Positions 4,193 through 35,268 of a stretch of DNA of 35,790 nucleotides are shown one piece after another. The stretch is from Psammoneis japonica (lineage: Eukaryota). The notes under the pieces were generated by a model. That model saw nothing but the letters and a program-made list of their open reading frames with translations. It was not told the origin of the DNA and did no database searches. The DNA lies in contig QPGO01000245.1 in the NCBI GenBank assembly GCA_008632985.1, positions 62,001 through 97,790 of the forward strand. The letters run 5' to 3'. Position 1 is the stretch's first letter, and each line of letters starts with the position of its first letter. The position numbers and the translations under genes were made by a program.

Positions 4193-5522
4193 TCAGCCCA
4201 TTATCATATCCACCAATGTTTCATCATGTGCAAACTCATCATTCATTGGCAGACTGGGGATGTCGCCTCCTCCAGACATGAACATGTTGTCTGAGACTGG
4301 TTGTTTGCGATGCTCGCAAAAGTCAGAATCAATGTAGTAAAATTGCTTGCCTTCAAAGTACATTTGATCACAATCCTGTTCCTCATCGTCCTCTCCAAAC
4401 GGTGGAGGCGGAGGACAGTGAGGATCATTGAGAATCCAGTTACTCGGAACCAATCCCTCTCCCGAGAACGTCGCTTCGGGACTCATGGAAGGCGTGACGG
4501 GTACAGGAGGGCCCGATGGTACTTGGTCAGAATCGTTGAGCATCCAGTCACTCGGCACCATCTCCTCGCCCGTAAGCGCCACCTCGGGACTCAAGGACGG
4601 AGTGACGGGTACTGGAGGGGCAGATGATACCACTTGGTCTGGAGTAGCTTCAGGCCTAATATTCTGCGGGGCCTTGGTGATACCCGGAAGAAAACTATCA
4701 TCGTTTGAAGAACAAGTCACGATACCGGATTCATCAGGCCAGACAACATGCGCGATGTTCTCTTTCTTAACCTCGTTGCTATTCTTGCGGGGCGTGGGAG
4801 TTTTCTTCTTGTTCGTGAACCGATCCCTGGTCTTGCCTCTTCTGGGCGGAGCGTTGTCGTTGGTCTTGTCCTTGTTTGAAGCAAAGGGCGATTCTGGTAG
4901 AGGAGGCATGTAGTAGAAGTTCGGCTCGGTGTCTGGAGAAGACGCCGCCTTGAATCCGGTCCCCTTGACACGAGTACGAGACATTTTCTTGCACAAAAAA
5001 TCTTTTCCACGAAGAAACAGGCAATGGTAATAAGCGCCACGGTCCGGTCCCGATGTGAGTCGATTAAATCCGTACTGTAAAGATTGAGAGAGAGCCGGAG
5101 CAGTGAGATAGGCATATAGTGGTGATAAAGCTGAAAAGCATTGGATAGCGACCCTGACTCACTAAATTAAGTTGTCTTTGAAAGCTGGTGAGCTTCGATT
5201 GCTTGAAGTACTTCGGCATCACTTTCGACACAAACTCCTTGGGCTTATGAAGCAAAAAGCATCGCCCGTGTGGCTGCCATGAAACAATGTGTGAGTGCCC
5301 GTCCTCACGGTCTGCTTCTTCCAACATTTTGTGTAGTTTGATTGGAAATGGAACCGCGACGCCACCACGTGGACCGCGTCTCTTTTTCTTCTTTACCGCA
5401 CGTACTTCATCATCTGACGACCCCGTGTCATCAGATACGATATCTAAATTCTGATCCAACGCATGATCGTGGTAACTGTGGTTCACAACCTGCCGCTTGG
5501 ACGAGCTTCTATCCAGAATCAT
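4193..5522 (-). CDS. Heat shock transcription factor (HSF-type DNA-binding domain), 2 exons: 5522-5163 and 5074-4193
   Basis: Exon 1 encodes HSYHDHA...RGGVAVPFPIKLHKML...IVSWQPHGRCF...YFKQSKLTSFQRQLNL. After a GT-AG intron the frame continues YGFNRLTSGPDRGAYYHCLFLRG and joins ORF 4193-4996 in frame. Start codon inferred. Confidence 0.9.
5075..5162 (-). other. Spliceosomal intron (88 bp) in the HSF gene
   Basis: Minus strand tta|GTGAGT...ctttaCAG|tac. Removing it restores the conserved RQLNL-YGF motif. Confidence 0.9.
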
Positions 5523-5965
5523 GATGAAAAGGAACAAGAGCGAGCGCTCGTGTTACATGAATAACAACATGTGCAATGGCGAATAATGCGCTCCGTCTTA
5601 TCACTACACAACACAAGACAAAGAACACAAAATCGGGGTTCGCAAAACAAACCTGATCTTGGATTTCAAAATCGTGTAGGATGCAGTACAATCCTACGTT
5701 GGTGCAAATTCATGGAGGAGAGGCGCTGTCAACACTCCGCCCATCAACATAGATCATTGAGATTTCCTCAGCATCAAAGATTTGCATTGAAATACGAGTG
5801 ACATGGTGATAGGAATCATAAGTAAAGCTAACCAATCAAGTTCCATTACGACAAGTTACTTAGGGGAAACACATTCTGCAGAATTCGGATTTCGTTCTTT
5901 TGTGATGAGAGGGAGGAGAAACAATTGTGGAATTTGAACATTATCTACAATGCTTTTAATGTTTA

Positions 5966-8900
5966 ACATTGTCGATTCGACGTCACAGGGAACAGCAAGG
6001 AACCGTCAACGGGGTTCGCCACTGGACGCGTCATGCTCTTGCTGATGGGCATTCACGAATGCCACGATCCAAAACAGGAGTTTCTCCGTGAAAATCGGGG
6101 TCTTGTTGCCCTCCTGCCTCGACGCGACGACAAGGAGATCGTTGTTGCCAATCATCCCTGGATTTTGTTGGTGTCACACACAGGCAGTTTTCACATGACA
6201 GCAGCAGGAGGAAAACAGATTTAGAGATTTAGCTGGAAGGTGCTGGTTGTTCTGTGCTGTGTGGCACAGCTGCTCCAACCAGCCAGCCTGCCCACATGCC
6301 CCGCTTGCTGCTTGTGTCTGGCTCGCTCTGCTGCCACATGAGCAAGCTGCTCATGTGTGCTTTCCAGACAACAACGGGCAACCTGGGTGCACAAAACACA
6401 CAGTCAGCTGTGCCAAAACAAAGTGCAGCTGGCAGGGGTTTGATGTGCAGTGGGTCAGCTGTGGCTTTGCACATCTTCTCCTCCTCTCTTTTTAGAAAAA
6501 GAGTGGGTGGGGCATGAGACAGTGCAGCTTCTGTGGCAAGAACTGGTGGATGGCCCAGGCAGCCAAAAAAGAGCAAGCTTTTGTGGGGGGTCCACAATTG
6601 TGTGTGCCAAAAGCCGTTGCCAAAAACTCATGGCCCAACCAAGCCACACACCAACAAGCAAAAACAGCAGAGAGAGAAAGAGAGAGAGAAAAAGAAAGAG
6701 AGAAGCCAACCCTGCTGAGAAGGAGTTCCTGGTGGATGGTCAGGGCACATGCCAAAAGTGGCAGACTTGCCTGGCAACTTGTGCGGCACAGCTCTCCTGT
6801 GGTGCACACATGAAGACATCTCAGCTGAGGAACCTCCTCTGAATGCTGAAATGTTCCCCACTGCACCAGCTCTCTGGCCAGTCTCTCACAAGATCAGAGC
6901 ACCTCAAGCCCTGCAAAGTTGGAAGCTTCCGAGGCCAAATCAACTTGAAACATTTGTTCTGACAGCTTGTCTCTGCAAGAGCAAAGGCTTGATTCCTGAA
7001 AGTGCGCACTTGCTGGGGGTGTTGAAGGAGCAAAGCTTCTTTGCTTGCCTGCCTGCTGAAAGTCTGTCTCTGGACACTTTGCTTGTGCAACACCATCCAC
7101 TGCCTCCATCTGGGTTGCATGCTCATCTGTGTGCTTCCAGATGGCTGGGGCACAAGTCTTGTTCTTCTTGTCAAAGAACAGCTTGCAGGCGCCAGATGGC
7201 TGAAGTGACCCCTGTGGGTGGGGCAGCCATGGCTGCCAGATCACCTGGGGCAGTGCCCACATCTTTGGAAACAGTGCAGTGGCTGCCAGGTGCAAACTTT
7301 CTTGCTGTTGACTCCAGTTTGCAGAGAAGCTGAACCTCTCATCCCTCATCTCTGCTGGGAAGTCTGTGGCGCAGTTGTTCTTTGGAGCTCCCAGATTGTT
7401 TTGGCCCAAGGAACCTCCTCTGTGGTGGTTGGAAAGCAGGCCCCCCAGAGCTCATCCATTTTCACCAAAGTTTGGAAGTCAAAAGGCTTGTGCTTCAAGA
7501 AGCAGAACAGGAAATGAGCAGTTGGTTTGACCAGCCAGAGAAAAAACAACTTGGTGGGCACAGGGTGGCAGTCCATTGGGAACAAGGGTTCATCACTTGC
7601 TGAAGCTGATGAAGAGCACGGTTGCTCAGGCTGTCCTCCTCTCCATTGCCAGGGTGCACACAGGCAACAAGGAGGGTGCTGAATGCCATCACAGAAGAGC
7701 AGGTTCTCCCAGATGAGCAAGGAAACTTTGATGGCACCAGGCGAGCAAAGAACAAATCTTTGGATTCCACAGCCACCACATCCTTTCACAGCTCTTGCTT
7801 GTCATGCATGCCTGCCAGGGAACATGGGTGACCAACAAAAAATTTGCACCCAAGCACTTCATGTCTCTGGTTCTTGGTTGCATGATTTGCAGAGCAGGGG
7901 TCCACAGTGTGTCTGCTGCTGGAAATGGGATGGTGTGGTTGATGTCTTGTGTCCACTCCTGGAGGCCTGCACAGGGCCCCTGTTTTCATGGGCGCAAAAT
8001 GCTGAGTTGTTGATGGAGCACATGGGTTCAGACTGGCGCAACCCTGGCTGCACAGAATCTGAATGCAAGCAAGTTGCTGATCACAACAAGAGCACAAAAC
8101 AAGACTGCTCTTTGGCTGCCACAGCCATCTGCAACATGTTTTCATGCCCAACCAGAGGGTCAACTGACAAAAAGCAAAATTTTTACACCTGTGGCTGCAC
8201 TCTCCACAGAAGCCACAATTGCTCAAAAAATCAACCAAGGTGTTCACTGCAATTGTTCCTCTGAAAAATGCACCCAGATTGACAGTCAACCATTGATTTG
8301 CAATGTTGTGATTTGTGGCCAGCATCTTGCTCAGAGTTGGCTCATTTGCTTGGAATGGCTTTGCAGCTCAATTGCCCATTGCATGTTTTTCTTTGGTGTT
8401 TCTGCTGCATCAATTGTCTCTTCATTGCACAGGGCAACACACAACAACTTAGCCTTCAGCCAGTCTGTTGTTTGCATGACATGGCACACCCCTGACACAA
8501 TCCATTGTGTCCTCCTTGTTGCATGTGAGACAACAGCAAAAAGACTCTCCTTTCAAAATGAGCTGCTCATTGAACCAACCCCTTTTGACAAACAATGCAG
8601 TTGCAAACTTGAGTCCTCTCCTTGCCTCTGTCCAGTGTCAATTTTTGCTCCAGAGCTTGACTCACAAAACATCAAGCAGCCCCCACAATGGCCATGTCAT
8701 CATTTGCCCAATGTCATCACCCATGCTTCCTGTTGCCACAAATGATCACAACCAACTCAACCCTCATTGTCACATTGCAGTTTGACAAATTCCAACATCA
8801 GCCCTGTTTGCAGCAGCATGGGTCAATCTGTGCTTCATTCAAGCCCCACTTTGAAGCTCTTCTTGGTTGACAAAAAGTGCGGTTCAAACATTTTTTGGGT

Positions 8901-11096
8901 TGCCAAGTCATTGGGGCACCATCATAGCTTCACTTTGCTCGTTGCACTCAGCCCCAGCTGCAGTGTGTTGAGGATTTCTGCCGGTGAGCACCAAGTTGTG
9001 TCTGCTGTCTGCGCAGCTCTTCCTTGTTGCTCTGTGAATGCAACAGCTTTGTCTCTTGCAAAAAACTGCAGAGGGTCACTTGGATGCCATGCTTGCTGAA
9101 GAGCCGGTGGCAATTTGCTTGTTGGAGAGAAAATTGGGTGCTCTGCATGCACCTGACTCTAGGACCTGGGCTGCATGACCAGAAGTTGCAACCAAGTCTT
9201 TGGTGACAGAAAACTCATTTGCTGTTGAGACTTTGTGCAAAGGTCAGTGCAGATGATTAACTCCACATTGCAGCAACTGTGTGGTTGCCAAGAACAGCCA
9301 TGCAGACTTGCTCAACAGCTCACGGCAGGAAAGCTTGACAAGGCTGCAAGCCACCAAAAAATTGTGTGGCGTGCAATTGGCCAAGCTCAGTCTGTTTCCA
9401 ACAAAGAGAGACTTGTTTCAAAATGCCAACGCAAATTTCTCTGCATTCTCCTCAAGCCATTTTGCCACTGCAAAACAACTCCACATCTTTGGCATTCCCA
9501 GTGCATTGTGTGTTGAAGCTTTGCTCACACCCACCACTGCCACTCAGTGACCAAACCATTGGACAAGTCACTCTGGAGTTTGGAAATTCAAGTCTGCTGC
9601 TGTTGGGGACAAGGTGATGCACAGGGCCACAACCACAGCAACAAGATCAACCTTTCCATGCTCAGCCACAGCTCTCAAAGTCTTGCCTGGGATCTTCCAG
9701 ATGCCACCAGCATCCTCAACCTGTTTTGGGGGGTTGATTGGCACTGTCATGGGGTCCTTTCACTCTGGAGTTTGGAAACCCAAGTCTGCCACTGCTGTTG
9801 TGAACAAGGTGACATGGGGCCACAGTGCCACAACATCAGCCTTGCAGCGCCAACCAAAGTTCTCTCAAAGTCCCACCTGGGGCTCATTGTCCTCTGCTTG
9901 CAGTTGTTGTTGGGTTGGCTGGTGCCATCATGTGATCTTTGCACACTCTGGAGTTGGGAAAGTCAAGTGTGCTCTCACACCTGCTGTTGGGGACAAGGTG
10001 ACATGGGGCCACAGCACCACAAGATCAACCTTTCAATGCCCAGCCACAGCCCTTTGGGTGTTGTCTGGGATCTGCCCAACACCAGCACCAGCACCAGCAC
10101 CCTCAGTTTGCAGCTGTCATGTTTGTTGGCACCATCACAGGGTCTTGCAATGCCCAGCCATCACAGCTCTTAAAGTGTCACCTGGTGTCTGCCAGATGCT
10201 GCCAGTGTCCTCAGCTTGCAACTTGTGATGCAGCAAAACCGCTGGCTTCTGAAGCAGAGTGTTGTGCACTGTGGCTGCACAAATCTCAGCTGGAACATGG
10301 TCCACAAGTTCTCTTTTTTCTGGCACTGCCTCGCTGCATTTCTACAAACTTGACTTTTGAAATGGCCTCATCTTGCAAGACTGCCACAAAGGACAGTCCT
10401 GCCAGGCAACCCTGCAGAGTCAAGGCGATGCCCTCCCCCTCTGGCTTTGTGGCTGCCAGCAGAGGCTGACTGCCTCTTGTCAACTGATGCCCTGCACTGG
10501 GCAGCCCTGTCCAATGTCCACCTTGCTTGCATTGCAAAATTCATTCTTCTTCCAACTGGCAGACACAAGTGCAAGTTTTGTGCCACTGCCTCGTTGCTGT
10601 TGTCAATTGACTTGATGCCAAAGCCCACACATCTGCCTGTCCAGTGCCACCGACACTGTTGTCCTCGGAAGCAAATGCAAGCTTGTTCTTGCTGCCACCG
10701 AGAAACTCTGTTTTGTTCAAGTCATCATTCTCAAGTCTGGTGGCAGGAGCACCTGTTGGACAACCAGATGCCGATGCCACTAACACCTCATCAGCAGCAC
10801 ACAAAAACTGAAATTGACAGTCTTCACTTTTCTCACTCTCGCCAAATTATGATCTGCTTTTCTACTTCTTCTGGACTTCAATCTTGTCAAACCAATCTTA
10901 CCAAGTCAATCTTACCAAATTGATCTTGTCAAATCGCCGCCGCTTCTCAGCCATTCGATTCATCGATCTTGTTCCTCAAGATCGATTGCGGCATTCGTGG
11001 TCGGCTCCGATTTCTGTGGTCATCGGTGGCACGACCCTTCACTCGTGACCGGGACCCAATCACTTGAGTCCCGCTTGAGTCATGTTCCGCGACAAG
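5966..11096. other. TpA- and CpG-depleted, TG/CA-rich decayed repeat block 1
   Basis: TA is nearly absent throughout and CG is scarce in the core (~6150-10930). Contains the 190-bp unit array and Tyr-poor spurious ORFs on both strands. Confidence 0.85.
9569..10222 (+). repeat. Diverged tandem array of ~185-190-bp units (about 3.5 copies)
   Basis: cactctggagtt..gaaa..caagt...ctgctgttg.g.acaaggtga...gggccaca recurs at 9569, 9761 and 9944. The same family occurs at 31261-32160. Confidence 0.85.
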
Positions 11097-12486
11097 TACC
11101 TACTTGAATAATGGCTACAACAAGGTGGCGAAAGGAAAAGAACGCGTTGCATTCATCGATGATGAAATTCACATTGGAGACACGACGCTAAAGATTCAAG
11201 CACTTTGAGGTAAAAATCTACCTTTGATGATTCGGCGGCGACGGAAGGATCCGTTGGCGGTCAACTTAGATATGTAACGGAATGATACAGTAGTACGTTA
11301 TATAGTAGGCCATTTTTCTTTCATACTTATTATGCTTGGGTCATCATCCCACCACTTTGGTCAGCTGATGCCTTCAACGAAGAATCATGGGGCTAGGAGG
11401 AAAGCGCGAACCCTGAGAGACGCGTGCTGCTATTTACCTTGTCGTATAATTGTGCGTCACACCATGCGGTTGACATCGTTTGCTGACTACCAGAATTCAT
11501 CAGTGGTTGTAACGTACTGTACAGATGACGCAGTGTCTGTAACGAAAATGAAAGGGAGCGACGAAAACGGGGTGCTTACTATACGCTTGCATCATGCTTT
11601 AGGTTTTCTTCCACCTTGAGGCTCTCCTTGAAGATCGGTTGCAATCCACTTCTCAGCGGCCTCGATGTTGGCCTTGCTGTGGGAGTTGCATTCTTCCACA
11701 AAACGACCTTTATCTCAGAGCTGTCCGTTCTGGACTTAGCTGCCACACGGAGGAAATCTGGGGTGAAAGGAGTAGACATCATGCTCCGACACGTCCATTG
11801 TCAGTGATGTCACGGTCCGTAATATGTTGCAGTAGGAGTCCCTCTCCATCAATTTCAATGCCCGTGGGAAACAACAGGAGGCTGTAGGCACCAATCAGTT
11901 TCCCATCGTCCACCGAGTTCTAAAGAAACGTATCCGTGGCTTTTTTCTCTACAGTATAGTCGGACGAGAGCGCATGTGCAAGCTTTCGAGGGCACCCGGG
12001 AGCCTTTTTCAAGAGCGACTTGGTGAGATACCGAGTGGGTTGAACTACCTGAATCGATTCTGAACAAAGATCCAGCATGACAGCGCCTGCATGTCCCCCT
12101 GTACCTTAAGAACGGTCCAATCTTGAAATCAACACGTCTCATAGCTAGGTGCAGTGCAACAGCATCGGGGTAGACGGCGACGCCGTGGTTCAATGACAAA
12201 CCCAAGACGCGGTGTCTGCCGCGATTTCCATAAAAAGAGAACAAGTGTCAGCTTTCGTCCACAGCATCTCACAATGATGCCAAGTTACCTCGTTCTTTAA
12301 ACTCAAGACACAGTGTCAGAGAAAGAGCAAGCACAGCAACACGACAAAGAAGAGTGCTGAACTTCGTGGGACGACATTGTTTTTGCGCCAACCCACACGG
12401 TCTAAAACAAGGTCATGAAGCGAGTCTTGCGTCAGGACGAGACGAGACAATGCCTTTCGAGAGAAGAACCTACTGAAGATACGAAA

Positions 12487-18695: not shown

Positions 18696-19548
18696 GGTGA
18701 CAATACTTGCTCTATCGATCACAACAACAGAGAAAGTGAGACGATTTCTGTTCTGATCAGCGTGCAGCGTGGACGTGGATCGAGCAGGAGACCTTCGTTG
18801 GTTTGACGTCTGTTCTATTTAAAAAAACATATGTCCATTAATATAGTTATATTCCGTTGTCCAAACCGTGCTCATTGGCCACGATTGCTCTCAGTTTGGC
18901 CCAAAGTGAAGAATACAATGATCAATGAACATATAGATATATTTAACAAACAAACTACACTCTTCTGATACTGGAACTAAATTGCATCGATTTTGGTCGG
19001 ATGAGTCAGATGTCGCATCATTCATTGTTGCGGTGTAACTGCTACACGGCATGATGAGATTCGCGATGCCGACATCCCCTCTCTAGAGCACCACTCTAGC
19101 TAGCTAGAGAGAAGTTGAAAGCTGAGCATTGCCACAGCTGTTTGAGAAAGGCTGCGTCATTTACCCCCCTGTGTTTCGATGATCGACGCAGCAGTCCAGT
19201 CTCTTGATGCATGTGAGGACGCATGAGTTGCCGCTGGATGATTTGGCCGAAACCCAGTGCAACAAGTGCCAGCATCTTGACGATGAAGAAACAGATGACG
19301 AAGATGCTGCTCATGCTGCTGCTGCGTTTGACAGTCTCCCAATGGAGTTGTTGAAAGATGAAATTTGCCGGATGGAGAGAGTCAGATGCAATGTGCGCTG
19401 CTTGTCAAATCTGGGCGATCATCATCCATCCTCTGGGCTCGGCGCAAAAGTGCAAAGACCTGCTTCATGTTGTGCCAGCATCTAGACACAAGAACAAAAA
19501 AGCCATGGGAAAGGCAAGAGGTCAGATGCACAACACGAGAGCAAGTGG

Positions 19549-20867
19549 GATGTGTTTTCATCCCAGGTGAGAAACTTTTGGACACATCACGAGGTTTTCT
19601 ACGTGTTTCTACATGAGACACACATTTAGCACCAAAAATCTTAGTAAAAAACGAGCTCCATGACAGCAAAAATATATTTTTCCATGTCTCGAACCACAAA
19701 CCACAATTCGCGCAAACCGAAAATGGCACCATGCCGTCGCCATGAACTCGTCCATTCTTGCACCAACGGATGTTGTGACTGAGAAGGCAAGAATGCCGAG
19801 ACAGGTCAATGAGACAACGCTCAATGCGATGATGTGGTTGAAAATTTGATCTTTGTTTTTTGTTGTGCCTCATGGACAGCCTTTTGACTCATGACATTTT
19901 TGATGCCTCTTTCTCTCTTCCTCAGCTTGCGAAGCAGGATTCTCATCAACGCGCTGCTCCATCTGCTTGACACCAGATGCTGACAACGAAGAATGTTTCC
20001 ATGACACGTTGCTGTGATTCTTACAATGTGTCGTCCGCACTTTGAGTCGTCATGGACGACGCTTTTTTGGGTCGTGCGACAACATCAGATTTCGCCACCG
20101 ACAAGAGAATCGTTGTGTGTTCGGTTTTGAGGGTGTGTGAGGATAAAGAATCTCAGATGCAAGTGTGACAGTTTCATCATTGTAAAGTGGAACAATGCCA
20201 TTAGCGACATCTCAGTGTTGCAGCCATTTTATTTCATTCTAAGATAGAACTGGTCATTTTGAGCGGTGAAATTTTGTCAACATTTCATCTTTAACTCTGC
20301 TTGGGCACATCAAATCACATGACAACTGGACACACATTGAACTTTGACGCTGCTGTTTCAATCCTGTTGTTTTATTCACTCAAGCATCCCACACAGGTCG
20401 ACAAATCAGTCGATCTTTGAAATGGCCGATCGCGCAAAAAAATCACGTGCGAAGTCAGTTCCCCCGATTTTTCTCATGCAAACAACGGAGTTAGAATGCC
20501 GTTCTTTTTTGGCATGAGCTCTTCACACAATGAACAATGCGTGCATTCTTTCAAAGCAGTCAGATTCGGTGAAAGAAACAGTGGAGTGGTCTCTCAAATG
20601 CACCAGAATGACAACAACGAGCAGATGGCTGTCAGTTTCACTCCAAAAAATGCCGCTTTCGAGACAGCGCTTTTCTTGCACGCACCCTTCAACCAATGAG
20701 AATGACGGCTGGCTTTTCAAAATAAACATGTCTGTGGAAAGAAGAAACGAAAAATCGGGGGAAAGTCCAGTCAGATTTGCTCGCACAAAAAGCACGGCGA
20801 CGGAAAAGGGACAGACGAAACGTCTCACCTCCGCATGCGCGTTTCTCACCTGGGATGAAAACACATC
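19549..20867. mobile_element. Non-autonomous TIR DNA transposon, 1319 bp, 27-bp perfect TIRs, 4-bp TSD (GTGG)
   Basis: gatgtgttttcatcccaggtgagaaac (19549-19575) is the exact reverse complement of 20841-20867. GTGG lies at 19545-19548 and 20868-20871. An uninterrupted homologue of the flanks lies at 33196-33360. No recognisable transposase. Confidence 0.9.
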
Positions 20868-21801
20868 GTGGCTTGCACAGCAAACAACAAACTGGCACTT
20901 TCCTTTTGAGCTTTCTTTGTTTTTTTTTGAAACTCAGACAAGTTGACAAAAACAGCTGAGGAGGATGAGAAACAAAGTGCTGCAATGTTGCACACCATCA
21001 GAGGCTGCAATGTGGTGGTTTCCACTTTCCTTTGTAATTTTTTAATGTGCATTGTTAAAAGTGGTGACAAGGAGAATGTTCAAACAATGCCAGCAAAAGT
21101 GCCCAACAAAATGCAGCTGTTTTGTGCATTCATCTGATGTCTCATGAACTTTTCTTGCACAAGCTTCAATCAAATGCATGCAATGTTTAATTTAATTGGG
21201 GTTGAAATCTGTGTTTTGTGGTGCATGGTTTGGTTTCCTTTTGACTGCAATCAATTTGAACTTGGTTCTAACTTTGTCCTCCTTGCTCACATGCCTCTGT
21301 CTTTGCATGTGTGCAGTCTGCTGTGCATGCAGTGCTTCATGCTCACACGTGAACCACCTTCATTTTTCTTCATGTTTCCCAGATTTGCACAGCCTGTTGA
21401 TCTGCGGTGTTTTCAGCATGTTTTTGCATGCGCAATTTTCTGCACACTTCACAACAGTGCACCCTCTCCCCAAAATTTGAAAACAAGAGCGTGCACTTTT
21501 GTGATTCAGTGGATCCTGCTTGTGGTTGCAAATCTGCAAATTGGCAACCAGCCATGGCAGTGAAAGACTTTGCCCCATTGGCAGATGACAGCAGCTCAAT
21601 GTGTGGTGAAACCTGCTGTCCTTCTGGCTGGTCAAGATGGGTTTTGATTTGGGCGCAGCTTGAGTTTTGTGATTGCGAGTGTGCTGTCATGAATCTGCCG
21701 CATCCAGAATGCTGAGCTGCTGTTGTGTTGTTGTGTGCATGCATGTCACAAAATTGCTTTTCTGTGGCATTGGTGCAATCGTGTGTGTCAGAGTTTTGCA
21801 T

Positions 21802-22114
21802 CCAGAATCATCACAAGTTGCCGCAAATGACACTCTTCAAACAAGGCATGCACAAAAAGAGGTTCATTGGGGTTTTTGATGTGCTTGCTGACAATGCATC
21901 CATCTTCTCCAATTTCCGCATCTAGATCAAGAAAGACTGCAGGTGGTGCTTGTTCCTGCAGCTCTCAGAATCACATGCATAAAAAGTTCTTTGTGCCACA
22001 TGTGGCACTCTTCAAAAAAGGCATGCACAAAAAAAGCTCTGTTGGTTTTTGATGTGTTCACTTGTGTTGCATCCATCTTCTCCAATTTCTGTGTCCAGAT
22101 CCAGAAAGACTGCA
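21802..22114 (+). repeat. Two diverged ~172-bp tandem units
   Basis: cactcttcaaa.aaggcatgcacaaaaa...tttttgatgtg...tgcatccatcttctccaatttc...agaaagactgcag occurs twice. Confidence 0.85.
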
Positions 22115-22431
22115 GAGGCAGAGAGTGAGGAAGCAACCCCACTGGAGGTTGCCTGGGTTGTTGGGCTTGTTTTTAAAGGCTTCCCAAGTCTCTCCACTGT
22201 TTCTGGTCCCCACTGCAAACACATGTCATTGATGAACCATCCACAGCACAGGAGGTGCGGGGTGAACTTGGTCATTGCCACATGACTTTGTCATTCATGC
22301 AGTGCCTTGCACAGTGTGGCACACATGCAGGCCATGATTGTTCCCACAGCTGATCCCAGCAAGTGCGCTCTGTGGCACCCAAGATGTTTTTTGCTTGCTC
22401 ACATGCTTTTTTCTGTGTTTTCTTTGAGTTG

Positions 22432-22992
22432 CAGGGGTGGAGCTGGGTGCTCGATGTCTTGCACCTCACACCAGCTTCCACATTTGCTTCAGAATCAGTG
22501 GCCCCGGATGCACCAATGCACCGGCAAGTGTGTGTTGTGGTTCATTTTAGTTCATCTACATTGTGCTCTCACAATGTGCTCCATGCTTTTCAGCAATGAA
22601 CAAGGTGGATCAGAGCAACAGCACTTCTGCTGCAAACTTGCCTGCTCCAGAATCAGTGGTGTTGGACACACTGGTGAGTCCATGTTGCCGTTCCTGTGGG
22701 TTGTGTTGGTTCATCTGTGTTGCACTCTCACAACATGTTCCACTCTTTTTGGCAATGAATGAGGTGGAGAACAGAGCAGCGGCACTTCAAGAATGGAGCA
22801 GCAGCTCCTGCTGCAAACTTGCCTGCTCCAGAATCAGTGGCACTGGATGCACCAGTGAGTCTGTGTTGCCCCTGTTCCTGTTGGCAATGTTGGTTCATCC
22901 ACATTGTGCTCTCACAATGCATTCTGCACTTTTTTGGCAATGAAAAAGGCTTCAAGAAAGTGAGCTGCAACTGCTGCTGCAAACTCCAGGGT
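22432..22992 (+). repeat. Dispersed repeat copy A, made of three ~160-bp subunits
   Basis: Colinear with 26667-27254. Subunit contains cagaatcag...gttcatc...ctctcacaa...gcaatgaa; both copies end at ctgcaaactccagggt. Confidence 0.9.
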
Positions 22993-22994
22993 TC

Positions 22995-23861
22995 CAGCGA
23001 CTGCCTCCAGAGATTGGGTGTTTGACAAAACTCAAAGTGTTGAACCTTGGATGTTGTAAGAGACTGACTGAGTTGCCTGATGAGATGGGACAATTGACAA
23101 GCTTGAAGGAATTGCAATTGAGCAACTGCTTGAAGCTTGAATGATTGCCTCATGGTTTGATTCGGCTGTTGCATCTAGAGCAGTTGAAATTGGGCAATTG
23201 CATTTCCCTCACTCAGCTGCCCCCGGGAATTGGACAGTTGCATCAGTTGGAGGTCCTCAACCTTGATTGTTGTTTCAGTCTTGCTGAAATTCCTGTTGAG
23301 ATTGGTCAGCTGTCCAAGCTGAAAACTCTCTCCTTGCGTGGCATTTTGCATTGCACACGAGAATTCTTGGAAAGCATTTGCACAAGCAGTCTGTCGAATC
23401 TGACAAACTTGGATTTGTGCAGTTGTTGTGGTCTTGCAGAGCTGCCTCCTGCAATGGGATCGCTTCGAAACCCAGAGGAGCTGGATGTGGATGGCTGTAC
23501 AAATTTGACTCACATTAGCAAAGAGGTTCTATCACTGCCGAGTCTCAAAAGTCTCGGATTGCGGGGTTGCACTGTGCTCACCATTTCACCCAAAGAAATC
23601 CGCGAGGCTTCGTATTCGGTTCAAAACGTGTACATGTCCGCCCGTGCATCCCAAGATGAAATAGACTGCTACTGTGAAATGAACAAGGCCGGACGACACC
23701 TGCTGCGTCGAGAAAATGGAATTCCTGACGCTCTCTGGCCGCACGTCGTGGAGGGTCGTCGGAGCGACGATAACTTTGTGTTTTGGTTCTTGAAGCACAA
23801 CCCGAACTTTGTCAAGAAAGGAGTTGGAAAAAGAGGAACCAGGAGAGCTCGCGAGGAATAG
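22995..23861 (+). pseudogene. 5-prime-truncated leucine-rich repeat protein pseudogene
   Basis: Frame reads QRLPPEIGCLTKLKVLNLGCCKRLTELPDEMGQLTSLKELQLSNCLKLE*LPHGL..., with plant-NLR-like ~24-aa LRRs and an in-frame TGA at 23142-23144. Ends with NKAGRHLL...ALWPHVV...VFWFLK and starts right after repeat copy A. Confidence 0.85.
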
Positions 23862-26559: not shown

Positions 26560-26666
26560 GGCTTATAATCATAATGTGTTGTGCATCGTCGCCATATTCA
26601 CGATGTTGTGCCTCCGCACTCTCCCCATCGCCATCGTCGTGTTCTCGTTTCTCTCGTGATTTTTTT

Positions 26667-27254
26667 CAGGGGTGCGTGCGTGGAGCTGGGTGCTCAACGT
26701 CTTGCACCGTGCACCGGCGTCCACATTGCTCCGGAATCAGCGGCGCCGGACACACCGATGCACCGGCAAGTGTGTGTTGTGGTTCAGGTTAGTTCATCTA
26801 CATTGTGCTCTCACAATGTGCTCTACACTTTTCGGCAATGAATGAGGTGGATCAGAGCAACAGCACTTCTGCTGCAAACTCGCCTGCTCCAGAATCAGCC
26901 ACGTTGGATGCACTGTCAAGTCCATGTTGCATTCCCACAGGTTGTGTTGGTTCATCTGTTTTGTGCTCTCACAATGTGCTCCATGCTTTTTGGCAATGAA
27001 TGAGGTGGAACAGAGCAGCGGCACTTCAAACAATGGAACAGCAGCTCCTGCTACAAACTTGCCTGCTCCAGACTCCAGAATCAGCTGTGCCGGATGCACC
27101 GGCAAGTCTGCATTGCCGCTCCTGTTGGCAGCGACAGTTCACCCACATTGTGCTCTCACAATGCATTCTGCACTTTCTTGGCAGTGAACAAGGTGGCTGC
27201 CAGCAGCAGCACTTCAAAAAAGTGAGCTGCAACTGCTGCTGCAAACTCCAGGGT
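26667..27254 (+). repeat. Dispersed repeat copy B (three ~160-bp subunits), more CpG kept at its left end
   Basis: Direct homologue of 22432-22992; many differences are CG/TG/CA/TA interchanges. Confidence 0.9.
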
Positions 27255-27631
27255 GTTGTCTCTGTCAGCATCATTTGACACAAATGCAAACAACAAAATG
27301 GAGCGTTCATGGTGCAACGCAAAGATTTTAATTTGCAGGTTTTGTGGGGACAGAGGGTGGGCTCTCTCAAGGAGAAAACGTGCCCCTGTTTCATGGTGAA
27401 GCATGATTTCCTCACAGGGAGGGAGGGTCTAATCCCATGGCATAAAAATGTTCATCAATCACAGTTGACATGTTGTTGCCAACTGCAGCCACAACTGTCA
27501 AGGTTTGAAACAACAAAATTTTGCACTGTGACAGATTAAAAAATCACTGGGAGAAAGGTGATCTGGATCACCACAATGCACGCTCTGATGACAAGCAAGC
27601 AGAAGCAGCATCATTGTGCTGCATGGCAAAT

Positions 27632-27873
27632 CTGAAAACTTCTCTGCCATCTTCTGCCAGGGATTTTTGTCATGTCTCACAATGAAAAGCTCCTGTGTCT
27701 CACAAAAACTGACTCTCCAGCCAGACAATGGGGTGGTGGCTCTCAAAGAGCAGAGGGAGCAAAGGCAATGGAATGACAACATGCTGGAACAAGAGCATGC
27801 ACCAAAAGTCAAACATTTTGCCAGCAGGGCAGAAAGCAAACATCACATTGTGAAGGCCAAAATTGCAAAATGC
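27632..27873 (+). repeat. Dispersed repeat, homologous to 33415-33701
   Basis: Shared aacttctctgc...tgccagggatt...gggtggtggctc...gagcaaaggca.tgga.tgacaacatg...cagggcagaaagcaaacatca...ccaaaattgcaaaatgc. Confidence 0.8.
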
Positions 27874-29661
27874 TCTGCTTCACATGGAGCAATGTGTCAT
27901 GTCTTCAAGATCATAGCACTTTTGTCATGGTTTTGTGCTTGAACCCATGTGCCCCACAATGGCAAGTGACCCATTGGATCACAGCATGCTGGGGCTCAAT
28001 CTCAGAGTTGTTGAGCTTGCGTGTGAGGACAGTGTGGCCATGCTGCAGTCTCTGCACATTGTGGATGAATGCGCGCAGCTGACATCTCAAGTTTGGCATC
28101 ATTGTTGCTCAAGTTGAGGACTGAAGTTGTGAGCCAGTGGCCAGGAGATGGCTTCTCTGTGTCCAGAATCTGGCACCAATTCTGTCACTTGGGGCAACTG
28201 TTCTCAAGGTTGGGATCAGATGAAGGCATGGTCTGCCACATGTGCTGGTGACAGGTTTGCCACCTTGTGCAGGCAAAAAGGTGTGATCACAACAGATCCA
28301 GACAAGATGATGCCCACAGTGAGTGGCAAATTGTCCAAGCCAGTCACAGCAGGGAGGGTCTGCATCCATTGCCACAAGAGGAGCTCCTGGTGAGTTGCTT
28401 GAAGCAGCATTCTCCAAGTCAGTTGTGGACAGGGGTCTTGGAAACAGGGGAGCTGTCATGTGTTCTGATGCAGGCAGCAGACCTGGGATGCATGCTGGAG
28501 TTGAGACCCAGAGAAGCTCAAGGTAAAAACCTTGAAATGCAGCCTCACTTGATGTGAAGAGAAAAGTTTGTTCCTGTGTCTGGCTCCAGGGTGCCACCCA
28601 CTGAACATGCAGTTCAAAAGAAGAGCAGTGGGTTTTTTGCCTCTGGCAAAGTGTCACACACACCTCCCAGACATGCTGTGAAACACACCCCATTGCCATT
28701 AAAAAATGGGGGGTCACAAGTCAGCAGCACACACCAGGGGAAATGGAGGTCAGCCAGCTGGAGGCCAGTGGTCAAAAGTGCTGCACTTGCAAGAGTTTTT
28801 GGACAGAGATCAGGCACACACATGTCATCCAAGTCTTCTGTGAGCACAACATGCATGATTTCCATGGTCTGTTCCTGCACTTTGTTGCAAATGGAAGCCT
28901 GCAACTCAGGAACAAGTTGTGTGGCATCATCAAAGCTGTGTGGCAGGGTTGAAAGTTGTGGGGCACCAGGATGTCTGGGTCAGAAGTCAAGTTCAGGATG
29001 AGCCCCAAGACACTTTCTTTGCACAAGCAAAGCTCAGCACAGCTTGGGGAATCATCTGGCTGGTGCATTTCCCCCATGTTCAAACTTGCTGTCCTCAAAA
29101 TCTTGAGAGTTGTCTCCCAGGAGGGGCTCCAGAATTCTTGCAAAGCTGGCTCCTCCAGGTTCTCTGGAAATTGTCCTGTCACTGTCAATGTGCCCTCCAA
29201 GTGTGCTGATCACTGCCCTCTCTTGGCTTCAGTGCAGAGTCATTTTTCCAGAAATCTTGAGCAGTTTCTTGCAGCAAAAAGCAACTTGCCATTGCAAAAA
29301 AGAAGATTCTCTCTGGTTGATGTTGCAAGACTCAGTCATGTGGAGCTGCACATCAGCTGCCCTCAATTCTCTCTCCACAGCCTGCAAACTCAACACCAGG
29401 TTGGGCTGCAAACTGCAAGCAAGCAACGCCAGGCAGAGAAAGCCTCCTTTTGGGGGTGAAGAAAAAAGGATTGGCAAGATCCCCAGCTGTGCAAGATGCA
29501 AACACCCACACACAAGCTCTTCCAGATGGAAAATGCAATGCCAGACAGTTGCCAGCAAGCTGCCTTTCCATTGTGGTTGCCCTGTGGGCACAAAGCTTTC
29601 TGCTCATCAAATCTTCCAGCAAAAACGTCTGTGTGCACACTTCTGCTGCATGTGCAGCACA

Positions 29662-31194
29662 GCTGGAGCCTGGCAACCTGGACACTGGCTGGGCTGAGCA
29701 TCTGCCCTTGAGTGCTCTCAAAAATCAACTGGGTGCCAGATGGTGCTCACACAAAAGAGCGCTCCTCTGTTGGCAAACATGCCAAGGAGCAAAGGGCCCA
29801 GCCCCAACAGCAAGCTGAGCAACAGAAGAGCTCTCAGACCAGAGTGTGATGAGAAGGAAATGTTGAGTCAAAAGCATTGCTCACCTTTTGGAGCAATGCT
29901 CATTTTCAAAGCACTGGCATTGTGTGAGCAGGTGCTGTCTGCAAGTCACAAGGGCCTGCACCATCCTCTGCTCTGTCAGCTGTGAAGCTGATGCTGAATC
30001 AGGAGTTGGTTGTTTTTTGTGCCAAAGGATGCCAGCTGACTTTTTGCATGTCCAATGCTGGCTGCACTCAGTGTGGCAAATTGAGAGGTGAAAGCAATGT
30101 TGTTCCAACCATCAGTCATTGTGCTTTTCACTGATGAAGAAGACCAGCACTGAGGCTCTGCTGCAGCTGTGCTCTTCACAGCTTTGTCATGTCCAAAGCT
30201 CAAAGGACTCTGCCAGGCTCCTTGAGCTTCAATGTTGGGGGATCTTCTCAACTGCACAACAAGTGAGAGAAAGTTGGCACTGACAACATGCTGAAAACAA
30301 GCTGCTGATGGACAACCCCATGAGCTTCAAGCAGCAATGGGCACACTTCTTGATCCCAGGAAAAGTGAAAAAGTGTGCTCTGTCACAAGCACTGGCTTTT
30401 TGGCATGCACTGACAGTGGAAAAGAAAAAGAAAAAGCAAGAAGCACACAGACAAGGAGAGCCAAGAAAAATTGCTTTGTCTTTTTGCTGAGCAACAAAAG
30501 CTCTGGCTTGCCCAAAGCTTGGCAAGCAAAAAATCACAAATGAGAAAAAAAGAGTTTTGTGACACAAAAGAGCTGGCAGAGAAAAAAGGATGGTGAGCAG
30601 GCCTTTGGACACAGTGGGGCAATTTTTGGAAAAAAGACAGCACCCCCACAGCAAGGCCGCCCCACATGTGTGCAAGTGAGTGCTTGGGCCATGGGTGCAC
30701 ATGCTGCATGCTGTGCAGAGTTTGCATGGCAGCATGATCACAGGGAAAAAGCTCCCCTCCTTGCCCCCACTGCATGATCTAAAGGCCTGATGGCAAGCAA
30801 GAGATTCCTGGCTGGAGCCTGGCAACCTTGATGCTGGCCAGGCTGAGCAGCTGCCCTTGAGTGCTCAAAGATCAGCTGGGTGCCAGAAGGCACTTGCACA
30901 AAAGAGCGCTCCTCTGCCAGCAAACAGGCTGAGGTGCAAAGGGCCCAGAGCCCCAAAAGCAAGCCAAGCAATGTCTGGCAGAAGGGCTCTCAGACCAGTG
31001 TGCAACAAAGAAATGTTGGACCAAAATCATTGTTCACTTTTAAAAGAGCAATGCTTGTTGGCAAAAGCACTGACATTGTGGGAGCAGGTGTGCAACCACA
31101 GCTTTTTCCAACACGTCTCATCTGTCCTCTGCCATGAAGCCAATGCTGAATCACAAGTTGGTTGCTTTTTTTGTTGAAGGATGCCAGTTGACTT
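29662..31194 (+). repeat. Diverged ~380-bp direct repeat pair (29662-30042 and 30811-31194)
   Basis: gctggagcctggcaacct...ctgcccttgagtgctc...acaaaagagcgctcctctg...ctctcagaccag...ggatgccag.tgact in both copies, with many TG<->CA swaps. Confidence 0.85.
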
Positions 31195-31260
31195 GTCAAA
31201 ATGTCTGATTTCTGTGTTGCGCATTCCAAATGATCACAAAAGCCAATGCAATTTTTCCAA

Positions 31261-32160
31261 TCATGGAGCACTGTGGCTGGGCATTGCAAGGTTGATCTTC
31301 TGGTGTTGCTGTGGCCCCATGTCACCTTGTCCACAACAGCAGCAGGTTTGATTTTCAGACTCCAGAGTGCAAGGACCTCATGCCAGCACCAACCATCCTC
31401 ACATGCAACAGGTGGTGTCTGGTGGGTCCCAGGCAACAATTCAAGAACTGAGGTTGGGTGCTGTTGCAAGGCAATTCTTGTGGTGTTGTGCCCCTTGTCA
31501 CCTGGTCTTCAACAGCAGCAGAGAGACTTTGGCTTCCAAACTCCAGTTGCAAGCTACAAGCTGAGTGTGCTGGCAGTCTCTGGTGGGCCCCAGGCATGAC
31601 TTTAAGAACTGTGATTGAGCACTCTTGCAAGGTTGCTTTTGCAGTGTTGTGGCCCCATGTTGGTGCTGTCATGGGATCCTTGCACTCTGGAGCTGGGAAA
31701 GTCAAGTCTGCTCCCTGCTGCCAGGGACAAATTAAAGAACTGCCTGGGATCTCCAGACACCACCAATGCCCTCAGCTTGCAGCTGTTGAGTTGATGAGTT
31801 GTTGCCACCATGTGGGGTCATTTCACTCTGGAGTTTGAAAGCTCAAGCATGCTGGCACTGTTGGGGACAAGGTGACATCATGGGGCCACAATGCCCCACA
31901 ACATCAATCTTGTTGCAGCACCCAGCTGCAGTTCTCAGGGTGTCACCTGGGATCCACAATGAAATGCTGCCAGTGCCCTCAGCTTGCTGTTGTCAGGTTT
32001 TTTGGCACCATCACAGGGGTTCCTTCATTCTGGTGCTGGGAGTTTGCAAATGTTGAAGTGTGCACCTCTGGCTGGCTGGGAGAACAAGATGGGGTTGCCA
32101 CAACTGTGCAACTCACTGACCCTGCACTGCTCAGTGCTCAACCACAGTTCTCAACATGTC
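31261..32160. repeat. 190-bp unit family: inverted units (31261-~31660) followed by direct units (~31660-32160)
   Basis: gtggccccatgtcaccttgtcc...ctccagagtg (31311-31369) is the reverse complement of the 9569-10222 unit. Forward cactctggag occurs at 31683 and 31824. Confidence 0.8.
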
Positions 32161-32446
32161 ATCAAGTCTGTGCCAAGCTGCTGGAAACAAGGCAACATGG
32201 AGCCACAACAGCACATGACAACAGCACTGGCAAGGGCAACACTGGCTCATTGGGGACAAGGGGTGCCAGCAGGGGGGGCACTGCTGCTCTGGCTCTTTGC
32301 AGACACACATCCAGTGCCGTGGCCATGCTGGCCCGGTCAACCTCTTGCTCAACCAGCTCCCTTTCTACAACCACCTGCATGACAACTCCATGACCTCTTC
32401 TAACCTCCTGCCTGCAAGTTTCAACCACAGCGACAATGCAACAGCA

Positions 32447-32828
32447 GCAGCAACAAAGGGTGTTGTGCATGTGTGGGCTGGACTGCTGCAAAGATCAGCT
32501 TCAACAGCAGCCCCCCCAGATGCAAACAAACAAGCTGTGTGGAGCAGTGCAAATGCAAAAGTTTCATTCTTGGCAAGAGCCAGCTGACACAACAAAAGCT
32601 GAGATCTCAACCTTCTTTGTGCACGATTTGGTTCACGTGCAGCTGGAACACGTCTGCAGCAACAAAGGGTGTTGTGCATGTGTGGGCTGGACTGCTGCAA
32701 AGATCAGCTTCAACAGCAGCCCCCCCAGATGCAAACAAACAAGCTGTGTGGAGCAGTGCAAATGCAAAAGTTTCATTCTTGGCAAGAGCCAGCTGACACA
32801 ACAAAAGCTGAGATCTCAACCTTCTTTG
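32447..32828 (+). repeat. Identical 173-bp direct duplication (32447-32619, 32656-32828) with a 36-bp spacer
   Basis: Base-for-base identical on manual comparison. Confidence 0.95.
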
Positions 32829-33195
32829 ACAACAGATGCAACTGCACCTGATTGAAGCAATGTTCAACATGTCCAGCTGCCAGACAATCAGGAGCTCACA
32901 CACAGCACCAGGAGCAATGAAAACCAATGGAGCAATTCATTTCAGTTGATTCAAACAATTTAAACTGCTTTCAAGAGCCAATGCTTTGAAATGCTTTTAA
33001 AGAAAGATCCTTGCAAAATGACACAGGCAATGATTGCCAAGCTGACTGGCTTGGCCCCATGGCAAAAAGGCACATTGCTGCCACACAAAACAACACAAAA
33101 AAAAAACACCAGATCACACCCAAGCAGCTTATGAACAATGACAACATTGAAGGAAGGTGCCAACAAACCCAGGACTCTGCATGTGACAACAAAGA

Positions 33196-33360
33196 AAAGC
33201 CCAGGGAAAGGCAAGAGGTCAGATGTGTGACACAAGAGCAGGCAGCTTGTGCAGCAAACAACAAGCCAATGCTTTCCTTTGCACTTTCTTTGTCTCTTGA
33301 AACTCACACAAGCCAGCAAAAACAGCCAGAGACAAGAAACAAATGCTGCAAAATTGCACA
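33196..33360 (+). repeat. Uninterrupted (empty-site) homologue of the repeat split by the TIR element at 19549-20867
   Basis: gggaaaggcaagaggtcagatg...gagca matches 19507-19543 and runs directly into cttg..cagcaaacaacaa...ttgaaactca.acaag, which matches 20872-20995. Confidence 0.85.
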
Positions 33361-34110
33361 CAGGCAAGCAGAAACAGCAGCATTGTGCCATGCTTGCCAA
33401 AGAAATGTGTCAAACTGACAACTTCTCTGCACTGTTTTTTGCCAGGGATTGTGCTGTCATGCCTCACAGTGAAAAGAGGGGTGGAGCATGACTTGATGCC
33501 AGCACAGCAAAAAATGCCAAGAAGCAAGATGGGTTGCAAGAAGAGACAATGGGACAGATGGCAGGGTGGTGGCTCAAAAAGCATGGAGAGAGCAAAGGCA
33601 GTGGAGTGACAACATGGGCTGAGAGCATGTGCCAAACAACAAACACTGCCAGGGCAGAAAGCAAACATCAGCACACGCTGGAAACCAAAATTGCAAAATG
33701 CAAGCAAATTGACAAACAAATCAAATCAAATGCTGGCATGATCCAGTCAACAACAAACAACAACAATTGAGATCCACAACTCAGGTGTGTGTGCACAGAA
33801 ATGAGCCATGTTGCACTTGTTGTTGTTTCCCACTTTGTTGATTTGGTTGACAACTGACAACCCAGCATTCACAACATTGTTGCACAGCTGTTGGGTTCAA
33901 GCTGATCATGTCAAGAGCCTGCACATTGTGAGACCAAATTTCCTCAAGTCTGGTTTCCCACTTTGCTGATTTGGCCAATTGTGAAAATCCATTTGCTCAC
34001 AATGAAGAAGCACCATTTGACAAGAGCACAAGCTTCTTGTCAAGCAAGTTTCAACTCTGAACAAGAGCAGCTGCATTTTTGTCAGACAGCTGTCAAGAGT
34101 GCAGCACCCA

Positions 34111-34549
34111 TGAGCAGTGATCACCTCCATTTTGTGGGAAAAAACTGTCAAACATTTAAGTGGACAGACATGTTTCAATGGTCACATCTCTGCTGCAAAC
34201 CCTGTCATCCGAGCAAACCCTCAGTGCCTTGCCCCCCCTTTTTGCATGTGAGAAATTTGGTTCTGCCATGTGTTTTCCCCAGAAACTCGTGCTCAGTCAT
34301 TTGGCATGGACTTGGCACGAATTCCACATGGAATTTGCACCAAGTCTGTGCCATTTCTCTCAGACCGCATTTTCCGACAAAGAGAATGAGTGAAACGAAT
34401 TCCTTGCACAACACACAAAAAGGGGGGGTGAGGCACAGAGGGTTTGTTCAGATGACAGGGTTTGCGGCGGAGACATGATCATTGAAACACATCCATTCAC
34501 TCAATTGTTTGACATTTTTTCCCCACAAAATGGAGGTGATCACTGCTTG
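34111..34549. mobile_element. Foldback/MITE-like palindromic element (~440 bp)
   Basis: ~140-bp outer arms (agcagtgatcacctccattttgtggg... / ...ccccacaaaatggaggtgatcactgct) plus an inner 52-bp palindrome at 34302-34353 on nearly the same axis. No TSD identified. Confidence 0.75.
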
Positions 34550-35268
34550 TCCTTGGCTGTGCCCACACGAGTGGAAGACTTGTGCTGCAGCCCCAACCAC
34601 TGCCCCCCCTCCCTGCAGGCTCAAGGCACCCTGAGACACATGTGGGCATGACTCCTGCAACCAATTTGGTGGCAACAAAGTTCCCTGAGGAGGTGCTCAG
34701 CATCTGGGGTGCCACACATGACAAAGCTGGCTGGCAATGAGAAATGATGACACTGGACTTCCATGCACCACTGCTCTTTGCCTGTGCTGGTGCTGCTCAA
34801 TGGGGGGTCACAAGATGACTCAGCAAAACTTTGCACTCTTGTCTTTGCCAGCTTTTTGACCTGGTCTTCAGGGAGCTTTCATTTTGAAACATCAAACCTG
34901 AGGACTTCACTCTCAGCATTGCCCACACTTCTGGCAACAGAACAGCACCAACAGAGTCTCTGTGCATGAACATCAGAAGGCAGCAGACCAAGTTTGTGCT
35001 GGAGGGTCTGCATGTGTCAACTCCAGCTGTGAAGGACAAGTGTTTTGTTTGCTGGCAATGAGGAGCTTGGGAGGCATTCATCTGGACAGAGTGTCAGCCC
35101 CACACCAAACCCCCCCCCCCCCCCCCCCAACACGTGTCAGACTGTGGCTCCTGCACTTCAGCTCAACCATTTGCAGACTCTGTGTTCCACATGGAGCAAT
35201 GTGTCATGGCTCCAAGATCAGAACAGGAGGTGATCACTGCTTGTCCTCGCCCGTTTCTTTGAAATGAC

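Follow-up and report, generated by a model that had tools for sequence, protein, structure and literature searches.

A TA-free but CpG-rich rim at a block edge suggests separable footprints of TpA loss and CpG decay

Why does a stretch of more than 250 bp contain no TA dinucleotide at all, while most of it is rich in CG? The stretch occupies positions 5966-6221 of a 35,790-nucleotide segment of contig QPGO01000245.1 (positions 62,001 to 97,790, forward strand), hereafter the window, and lies at the left edge of the first of three blocks that have lost nearly all of both dinucleotides. An original prediction, made from the letters alone, held that TpA loss reaches about 200 bp, or one nucleosome, beyond CpG loss at this edge and that the two processes are separable. 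We consider it probable, with somewhat better than even confidence, that the rim is the outer edge of a domain with two footprints, one left by a TpA mutator and the other, narrower one by an independent CpG decay.

The composition of the rim bore out the original prediction exactly, which had described about 255 bp without TA and about 17 CG between 5971 and 6145, followed by a collapse of CG. When every TA and CG was listed, one TA was found at 5964 and the next at 6222, a gap of 258 bp that leaves 5966-6221 without TA, and exactly 17 CG fell within 5973-6140, with further CG sparse (6302, 6324, 6375 and 6615). Only the 176 bp at 5965-6140 are both TA-free and CG-rich; 6141-6221 already lacks both dinucleotides. 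Expectations were taken from the purine/pyrimidine (R/Y) skeleton of the sequence, because transitions cannot change it. The 62 pyrimidine-purine (Y-R) steps of the whole TA-free stretch predict 11.2 TA and 14.3 CG, against 0 and 17 seen, and the probability of finding no TA is 4.4e-6 when one flanking base is taken into account and 3.8e-6 when two are. For the rim core (5965-6140) the skeleton predicts 7.4 TA and 9.5 CG, with P(no TA) of 3e-4. In the 17.6 kb of ordinary sequence of the window that served as background (771 TA, mean TA spacing 22.8 bp), the longest TA-free gaps are 183 and 180 bp, and a TA gap of at least 258 bp was reached in none of 300 first-order Markov simulations of that background. 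Coding status would not explain the TA-free stretch, since the eight Pfam-supported or long open reading frames (ORFs) of the window carry 2.5-4.3 TA per 100 bp, with TA-free gaps of at most 183 bp.

Both boundaries of the rim are sharp, as indicated by step-like counts in 176-bp bins around 5965: TA runs 4, 9, 4, 12 in the flank, 0 in the rim and 2, 0, 1, 0 in the block, and CG runs 14, 11, 6, 4, then 17, then 1, 2, 1, 1. The junction of flank, rim and block is not an assembly join, because a 4,663-bp contig from an independent contig set (X1) crosses 5300-6781 with 10 base differences. In X1, where a summed contig depth of ~55 corresponds to single copy, the rim has a depth of ~55 at a likeness of at least 80% and is thus single copy.

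TA- and CG-depleted territory was segmented independently with a two-state hidden Markov model (HMM), and the edges were also placed by maximum-likelihood change points. By HMM, the TA-depleted territory covers 17,815 bp and the CG-depleted territory 15,746 bp, and 15,659 bp belong to both. The territory depleted of TA only amounts to 2,156 bp in six pieces, every piece at a block edge, and that depleted of CG only is one piece of 87 bp. In this window, CpG-loss territory is nested within TpA-loss territory. At the left edge of block 1, the TA change point lies at 5965 (support 5965-6012) and the CG change point at 6141 (6129-6180), an offset of +176 bp with disjoint supports. Over the six edges (left and right of blocks 1, 2 and 3 in turn), the offsets are +176, -87, +1192, +161, +169 and +21 bp, and the support intervals are disjoint at only two of them (+176 and +1192). 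Three offsets fall near 165-175 bp (161, 169 and 176), with wide intervals; a regular one-nucleosome offset is only hinted at, and no nucleosome-scale periodicity was found in the remaining CG and TA. The proposed overhang of TpA loss holds at this edge, at 176 bp; a systematic offset of one nucleosome is not shown. The separability of the two losses is upheld by the nesting (2,156 against 87 bp) and by a large TA-only zone.

This zone (19163-20867), left of block 2, holds 19 TA against 76 expected from the skeleton and 77 CG against 95 expected. TpA loss can thus run without CpG loss; an R/Y-coded self-comparison of the zone gave two short matches only. The TpA-loss context signature is common to the blocks and the TA-only zone. 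In flank-context counts, for which blocks at 6141-10780, 21035-23336 and 26790-35247 and the zone at 19163-20867 were used, TA survival in the blocks is 0 of 203 expected in RTAY, 16 of 337 in mixed contexts and 29 of 127 in YTAR (p=1e-14), and the zone follows the same rank order, with 2 of 26.7, 10 of 36.5 and 7 of 12.9, respectively (p=0.02). Among the 45 residual TA of the blocks are 16 TTAA, 10 CTAA/TTAG, 7 CTAC/GTAG and 3 CTAG, and none stands in ATAT, GTAC or ATAC/GTAT, contexts that hold 30% of background TA. Counted strand-wise, TAA and TAG make up 74 of the 90 trinucleotides at residual block TA, against 43% in background, and because these are the survivors, TAR appears to be a poor substrate. 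A model in which the A of each strand mutates independently, with TAY ~3-4 times faster than TAR, fits both blocks and zone. The 89 residual CG of the blocks have a context of their own: GCGC, CCGC and CCGG account for 44% of them, against 18% in background, and TCGA for 1 of 89, against 8%. CpG decay is known from vertebrates to be slower in G+C-rich flanks. A mixture model of the TG/CA flanks for the TA-derived share was not identifiable, with unstable weights even on the background control, and was discarded.

The rim and the two other short margins (127 Y-R steps) together hold 0 TA, where a block-level exposure expects 1.33 (P=0.26) and a zone-level exposure 5.6 (P=0.004), and they hold 39 CG against 29.3 expected. 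A view of the rim as a weak fringe of the block is thus not borne out, as it combines full TpA exposure with no CpG decay, and on the same grounds different footprints are favoured over mere different speeds. From 26661 on, the left margin of block 3 is a repeat shared with block 2 (R/Y identity 91-98%), and at five aligned sites CG is kept in the margin and is TG/CA in the block 2 copy.

From background to blocks, the observed/expected ratio (o/e) falls from 0.62 to 0.05 for TA and from 1.00 to 0.10 for CG, and that of CA/TG rises from 1.15 to 1.82/1.87, with block G+C at 0.44-0.58, like the flanks. The Y-R total (TA+CG+TG+CA) hardly varies between background (24.2%), blocks (24.0%), rim (24.3%) and zone (24.1%), as expected if CG and TA were converted to TG/CA. 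Over 549 aligned bases, two copies of a repeat (22437-23000 and 26680-27250) are separated by 57 transitions and 12 transversions; at 14 dinucleotides TG in one stands against CA in the other, at 13 CG stands against TG/CA, and discordances of TA versus TG/CA are also present. In R/Y code the copies are 98% identical over 205 bp, against a nucleotide identity of 82% over a 614-bp BLAST match. In addition, at 10790, 10810 and 10843 the window reads CA, TG and CA, and most paralogous X1 contigs read CG, TA and TA. On the basis of these repeat-copy differences and X1 paralogues, the blocks therefore arose by transitions and are of mutational, not native, origin. A runs test of TG versus CA in the blocks (z -0.2 to 1.5) revealed random interspersion with no long single-strand tracts, indicating single-site hits on either strand. 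X1 contigs confirm the block sequence, with 0 differences over 647 bp and 2-4 over 601, 571 and 1,030 bp. The depth of block 1 in X1 is ~55 up to ~8.1 kb and reaches its maximum of 4,577 at 9992-10195; 6222 to ~8100 is single copy at a likeness of at least 80%, and a high-copy repeat occupies 8.2-10.4 kb.

The window and X1 also differ in ways that bear on the age of the process. Among the single-contig differences listed for 5300-8925, 7 of 17 are sites with CG or TA on one side and TG or CA on the other. The differences at 5947 (TA versus TG) and 5952 (TG versus TA) both lie within 20 bp of the outer edge of the rim. At 6344, 6353, 7020 and 7254, X1 has CG and the window CA/TG, and at 8450 X1 has CA and the window TA. 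We counted these differences in favour of the explanation set out below, as signs that TpA/CpG conversion may be recent or continuing.

The explanation that we favour runs as follows. The interval 5966-6221 would be the outer rim of a domain of ~4.9 kb (5965-10847), in which nearly all TpA would have become TpG or CpA through A:T to G:C transitions. Changing TA to TG/CA requires such transitions, which cytosine deamination cannot produce. A second and independent process, C to T at CpG, would have removed CpG only from 6141 inwards, most likely by deamination of 5-methylcytosine (5mC) in a silenced, methylated domain. The rim would then have received TpA mutation as heavy as that of the block interior and no CpG decay. 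Its TG/CA excess would derive from TA, and a lack of methylation may explain why its CpGs persist, given that the rim faces the 5' side of an HSF-type gene whose ATG lies at ~5525, 440 bp away. The TpA mutator may be an enzyme-driven adenine change of the kind reported in the alga Bigelowiella natans, possibly a TadA/ADAT-like deaminase.

Several points weigh against this explanation. The offset is uneven, with one edge at +21 bp, one reversed (-87 bp) and three of the six with overlapping supports. The TA-free stretch holds 45 TG/CA against ~36 expected at the background rate, an excess that alone is not significant, and the argument for their origin from TA is a purely statistical one. An unmutated homologue of the rim was not found, there being no R/Y-coded match in the window and a single copy in X1, and a natively TA-free rim is consequently excluded on statistical grounds only. 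CG in the rim core exceeds expectation (16 against 9.5), which could mark a natively CpG-rich, promoter-like segment. HMMER searches of 1.84 billion representatives with the 85-residue plus-strand frame of the rim gave no credible homologue, the minus-strand frames not having been searched. The methylation, the chromatin state and the mutator enzyme are inferred. Finally, targeting of foreign DNA as in B. natans is not demonstrated in the window, because no transposon or viral domain was found in 152 ORFs from the blocks, the TA-only zone and their edges.

The main competing explanation, which we regard as unlikely, invokes one footprint with two speeds: TpA loss would be much faster than CpG decay, and the rim would be a recent outward extension of the domain. 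The zone does look intermediate, with a TA survival of 0.25 (19/76) and a CG survival of 0.81 (77/95), the TA/TG differences from X1 at 5947 and 5952 do lie at the outer edge of the rim, and the TpA rate in B. natans is given as ~1000 times baseline. The short margins, however, are saturated for TA loss (0 against 23.7 expected) and yet hold the 39 CG against 29.3 expected noted above, where the CG/TA loss ratio of ~0.15 taken from the zone would limit CG survival in the margins to at most ~0.73. Moreover, both boundaries are sharp steps, not gradients.

Far less probable is a native or chance origin, in which the 257 bp would be a TA-poor, CpG-rich ordinary exon, untranslated region or promoter island abutting the block. 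The sole open frame across the rim (5967-6224, plus strand) has a codon score of 0.05, the best of the six frames, which falls between the non-coding mean of -0.02 and the coding mean of 0.118; ordinary ORFs have TA-free gaps of 180 and 183 bp, and similar local CG density occurs elsewhere in the window. Nevertheless, the absence of TA has a skeleton probability of 4e-6, none of the 300 simulations reached 258 bp, ordinary ORFs do not fall below 2.5 TA per 100 bp, and all six TA-only segments stand at block edges and none elsewhere. The two HMMER matches to the rim frame were rejected, since both are translated tandem repeats that align in 9 and 5 separate stretches.

We give still less weight to a single relaxed mutator that changes the adenine of YpA, strongly at TpA and weakly at CpA, so that unmethylated rims gain CpG and methylated interiors lose it again. 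Two rims do hold more CG than their skeletons predict (16 against 9.5 and 18 against 10.6), but CG is below expectation in the zone (77 against 95) and in the right margin of block 2 (5 against 9.2), and every GC-biased change reported for B. natans is on TpA. Least probable of all are an artefact of modified bases miscalled in assembly and selection against CpG/UpA in expressed RNA: many RNA viruses and cytoplasmic RNAs do avoid both CpG and UpA (PMC3829696), but independent X1 contigs repeat the block sequence, as given above, depletion to 0.05-0.10 of expectation over 15.5 kb without recognisable genes goes far past known selective suppression, and the TG/CA discordances between repeat copies show independent mutation.

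Returning to a TpA mutator whose domain overhangs a narrower CpG decay, a wider scheme is possible, and we hold it only tentatively. A diatom-like alga would possess an adenine mutator that is guided by chromatin, is specific for TpA with a ~3-4 fold preference for TAY over TAR, acts on the two strands independently and saturates on silent domains. Some signal other than CpG methylation would define its footprint, which would extend past the methylated core, at some gene-facing edges by about one nucleosome and at young domains by >1 kb. TA-only DNA would be the earliest stage of a 'mutate, then methylate and decay' defence common to the SAR supergroup (stramenopiles, alveolates and rhizarians), a sharing that we propose because the signature is seen in both Rhizaria and Stramenopila.

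The features of the window are collected in Table 1. ORFs outside the blocks carry eukaryotic Pfam domains (HSF-type DNA binding, two CRAL/TRIO, CorA with EF hands, and LRR), and the best relatives of the CorA-EF-hand ORF have 40-56% identity, the named ones being pennate diatoms (Nitzschia, Bacillariaceae, Pseudo-nitzschia). We treated the window as what its genes suggest, probable nuclear DNA of a diatom-like stramenopile.

Table 1. Positions of the rim, blocks, margins and neighbouring features in the window
Feature	Position	Strand	Basis and remarks
First coding exon of the HSF-type gene next to the rim	5064..5525	-	Pfam HSF_DNA-bind E=1e-15; translation with first Met
TA-only rim, core of the TA-free stretch	5965..6140	.	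0 TA, 16-17 CG, 25 TG/CA; change points 5965 and 6141; HMM TA-only segment
Remainder of the TA-free stretch, first 81 bp of block 1	6141..6221	.	No CG from 6140 to 6302, no TA until 6222
Block 1, TA and CG depleted, TG/CA doubled	6141..10847	.	Composition and HMM; left 2 kb single copy
Perfect 8-bp tandem duplication, AGATTTAG twice	6217..6232	+	Sole two TA in 5965-6492 (6222, 6230), both TTAG, a resistant context
Sole CG-only stretch, 87 bp	10848..10934	.	HMM; includes 14-bp tandem repeat 10878-10935 with TA in the unit
Large TA-only zone left of block 2	19163..20867	.	1.7 kb; interrupted by TA cluster 19600-19675
Block 2, doubly depleted	20868..23336	.	Composition and HMM
TA-only margin, right edge of block 2	23337..23497	.	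161 bp, 0 TA, 5 CG; inside LRR-type ORF 23145-23861 (+)
TA-only margin, left edge of block 3	26596..26764	.	169 bp, 0 TA, 18 CG; 46-214 bp upstream of the CorA-EF-hand ATG
Block 3, doubly depleted	26765..35247	.	Composition and HMM

In the AGATTTAG duplication just inside block 1, X1 has G, not T, at 6230; the duplication could be a transposon excision footprint or the result of replication slippage. To the right of block 1, a stretch at 10914-11096 is TA-free and CG-rich as well, with a TA gap of 184 bp (10913 to 11097) and 17 CG. Between it and the block lie five TA, within or close to the 14-bp tandem repeat. The stretch is not TA-depleted by HMM and belongs to a repeat of ~8-15 copies. High-copy families occupy 9400-10200 (X1 depth 940-4,577) and 10600-11200 (320-800), and many X1 contigs join or loop within 9568-10192, a periodic repeat of ~190 bp.

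At the right edge of block 2, the LRR-type ORF (23145-23861, plus strand) straddles the boundary, and its Pfam LRR matches (residues 5-89) lie in the TA/CG-poor part, so that a host-type gene or pseudogene would be partly inside the mutated domain. In block 3, a 209-bp unit is repeated 1.8 times at 32447-32828 with 100% identity, which places this duplication after the last mutation of that segment. Right of block 3, the sequence switches abruptly to a TA-rich stretch at 35269-35422, with 25 TA in ~154 bp, many CTAG, GTAG and CTAC words and short palindromic runs, which could represent a boundary element or the terminus of some other element. Elsewhere in the window, Tandem Repeats Finder reported a 108-bp tandem repeat (4.1 copies, 98% identity) at 17906-18351, inside the long minus-strand ORF 17775-18818, and a related 108-bp repeat of 1.9 copies lies at 4424-4630 in ORF 4193-5158.

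In the blocks, the TA-only zone and the edges, 157 stop-to-stop ORFs reach a length of 70 aa or more, and most have no family match. Because TAA and TAG are nearly absent there, only TGA stops remain and many long false ORFs result; TA-poor blocks are thus a trap for gene callers and annotation. No credible Pfam family was found in 152 ORFs of these regions (17 with 150 aa or more and 135 with 70 aa or more), and sub-threshold matches to Tab2-like_N and Tertiapin (E ~0.009) in block-region ORFs were treated as noise. Scans of viral_contigs with two block ORFs and the rim frame confirmed no viral relatives. A metagenome scan with the ORF of the high-copy repeat gave one weak locus, at 28% identity over 61 residues and of ordinary composition.

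The closest known system is the TpA-specific hypermutation of integrated DNA of nucleocytoplasmic large DNA viruses (NCLDV) and virophages in B. natans (Mettrop et al., bioRxiv 10.64898/2026.01.13.699255). In mutation accumulation, 230 of 231 changes in two hypermutable integrated viral regions were A>G or T>C, all GC-biased changes in the hypermutable regions were on TpA, and 124 clusters of TpA depletion with a gain of CpA and TpG were found in the genome (bioRxiv 10.64898/2026.01.13.699255). The terms CpG, 5mC, boundaries and flanks have 0 occurrences each in the text of the preprint (bioRxiv 10.64898/2026.01.13.699255). Like the B. natans regions, as far as they are described there, the window shows TpA replaced by TpG or CpA according to strand (TA o/e 0.05, CA/TG 1.82/1.87, constant Y-R total), in discrete multi-kilobase domains, whose limits in the window are sharp by HMM, change points and 176-bp bins. 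Long-term TpA depletion with CpA and TpG enrichment in clusters of 1-kb windows, with many of the affected sequences unannotated, is a further likeness. The differences are that the host there is a rhizarian and here a diatom-like stramenopile, that depletion in the window is near total (o/e 0.05, against a Rho of 0.45 in the B. natans NCLDV region), that TpA loss here coincides with near-total CpG loss, and that no viral or transposon domain was found in the window blocks. De novo mutations were measured in B. natans, whereas the evidence from the window is compositional and comparative.

Fungal repeat-induced point mutation (RIP) leaks into adjacent single-copy DNA. RIP is described as C to T change mostly at CpA, which makes TpA and lowers G+C (PMC9998398, PMC2621366). 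The window resembles RIP, so described, in a saturating, context-specific, transition-only process that covers domains, mutates repeat copies independently and affects flanking unique DNA. We rejected the fungal chemistry for the window, in which TpA is lost and CpA gained, the affected contexts are CpG and TpA, and G+C remains near 0.5, like the flanks. A further departure is the single-copy state of ~2 kb of block 1.

In diatoms, transposable elements carry CpG methylation, which in Phaeodactylum depends on DNMT5a (PMC9998398). Decay by 5mC deamination has its likeness in the conversion of block CpG to TpG/CpA (CG o/e 0.10), which is seen at the 13 repeat sites and at 6344, 6353, 7020 and 7254, where X1 keeps CG, and in the preference of block CpG survivors for G+C-rich flanks. 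In contrast, TpA removal is impossible by that route, and the footprint of CpG loss is narrower than that of TpA loss. Among polynucleotide adenosine deaminases, ADAR is described as preferring 5'-UAG and TadA/ADAT2 5'-ACG after U33 (PMC10661471). An A to inosine (read as G) change with a 5' U/T neighbour would turn TpA into TpG, as such deaminases might. The TAR resistance in the window is the opposite of the UAG preference described for ADAR and is closer to the UAC of TadA.

Literature searches found no diatom report of TA/CG-free or RIP-like blocks, the B. natans preprint being the sole close case. TpA-directed hypermutation was reported only in 2026, from one rhizarian alga and in mutation-accumulation lines (bioRxiv 10.64898/2026.01.13.699255). 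The window appears to show the saturated end state of the B. natans signature in a diatom-like stramenopile. CpG decay accompanies it here, and the rim at 5965-6140 offers one place to distinguish TpA loss from CpG decay. Should the same nesting be general across the genome, the TpA mutator would not be recruited by CpG methylation; the three states, TA lost only, both lost and neither lost, would provide a sequence read-out for staging silenced domains; and the signature of the mutator (TpA, TAY over TAR, no strand clustering) could be matched to candidate deaminases.

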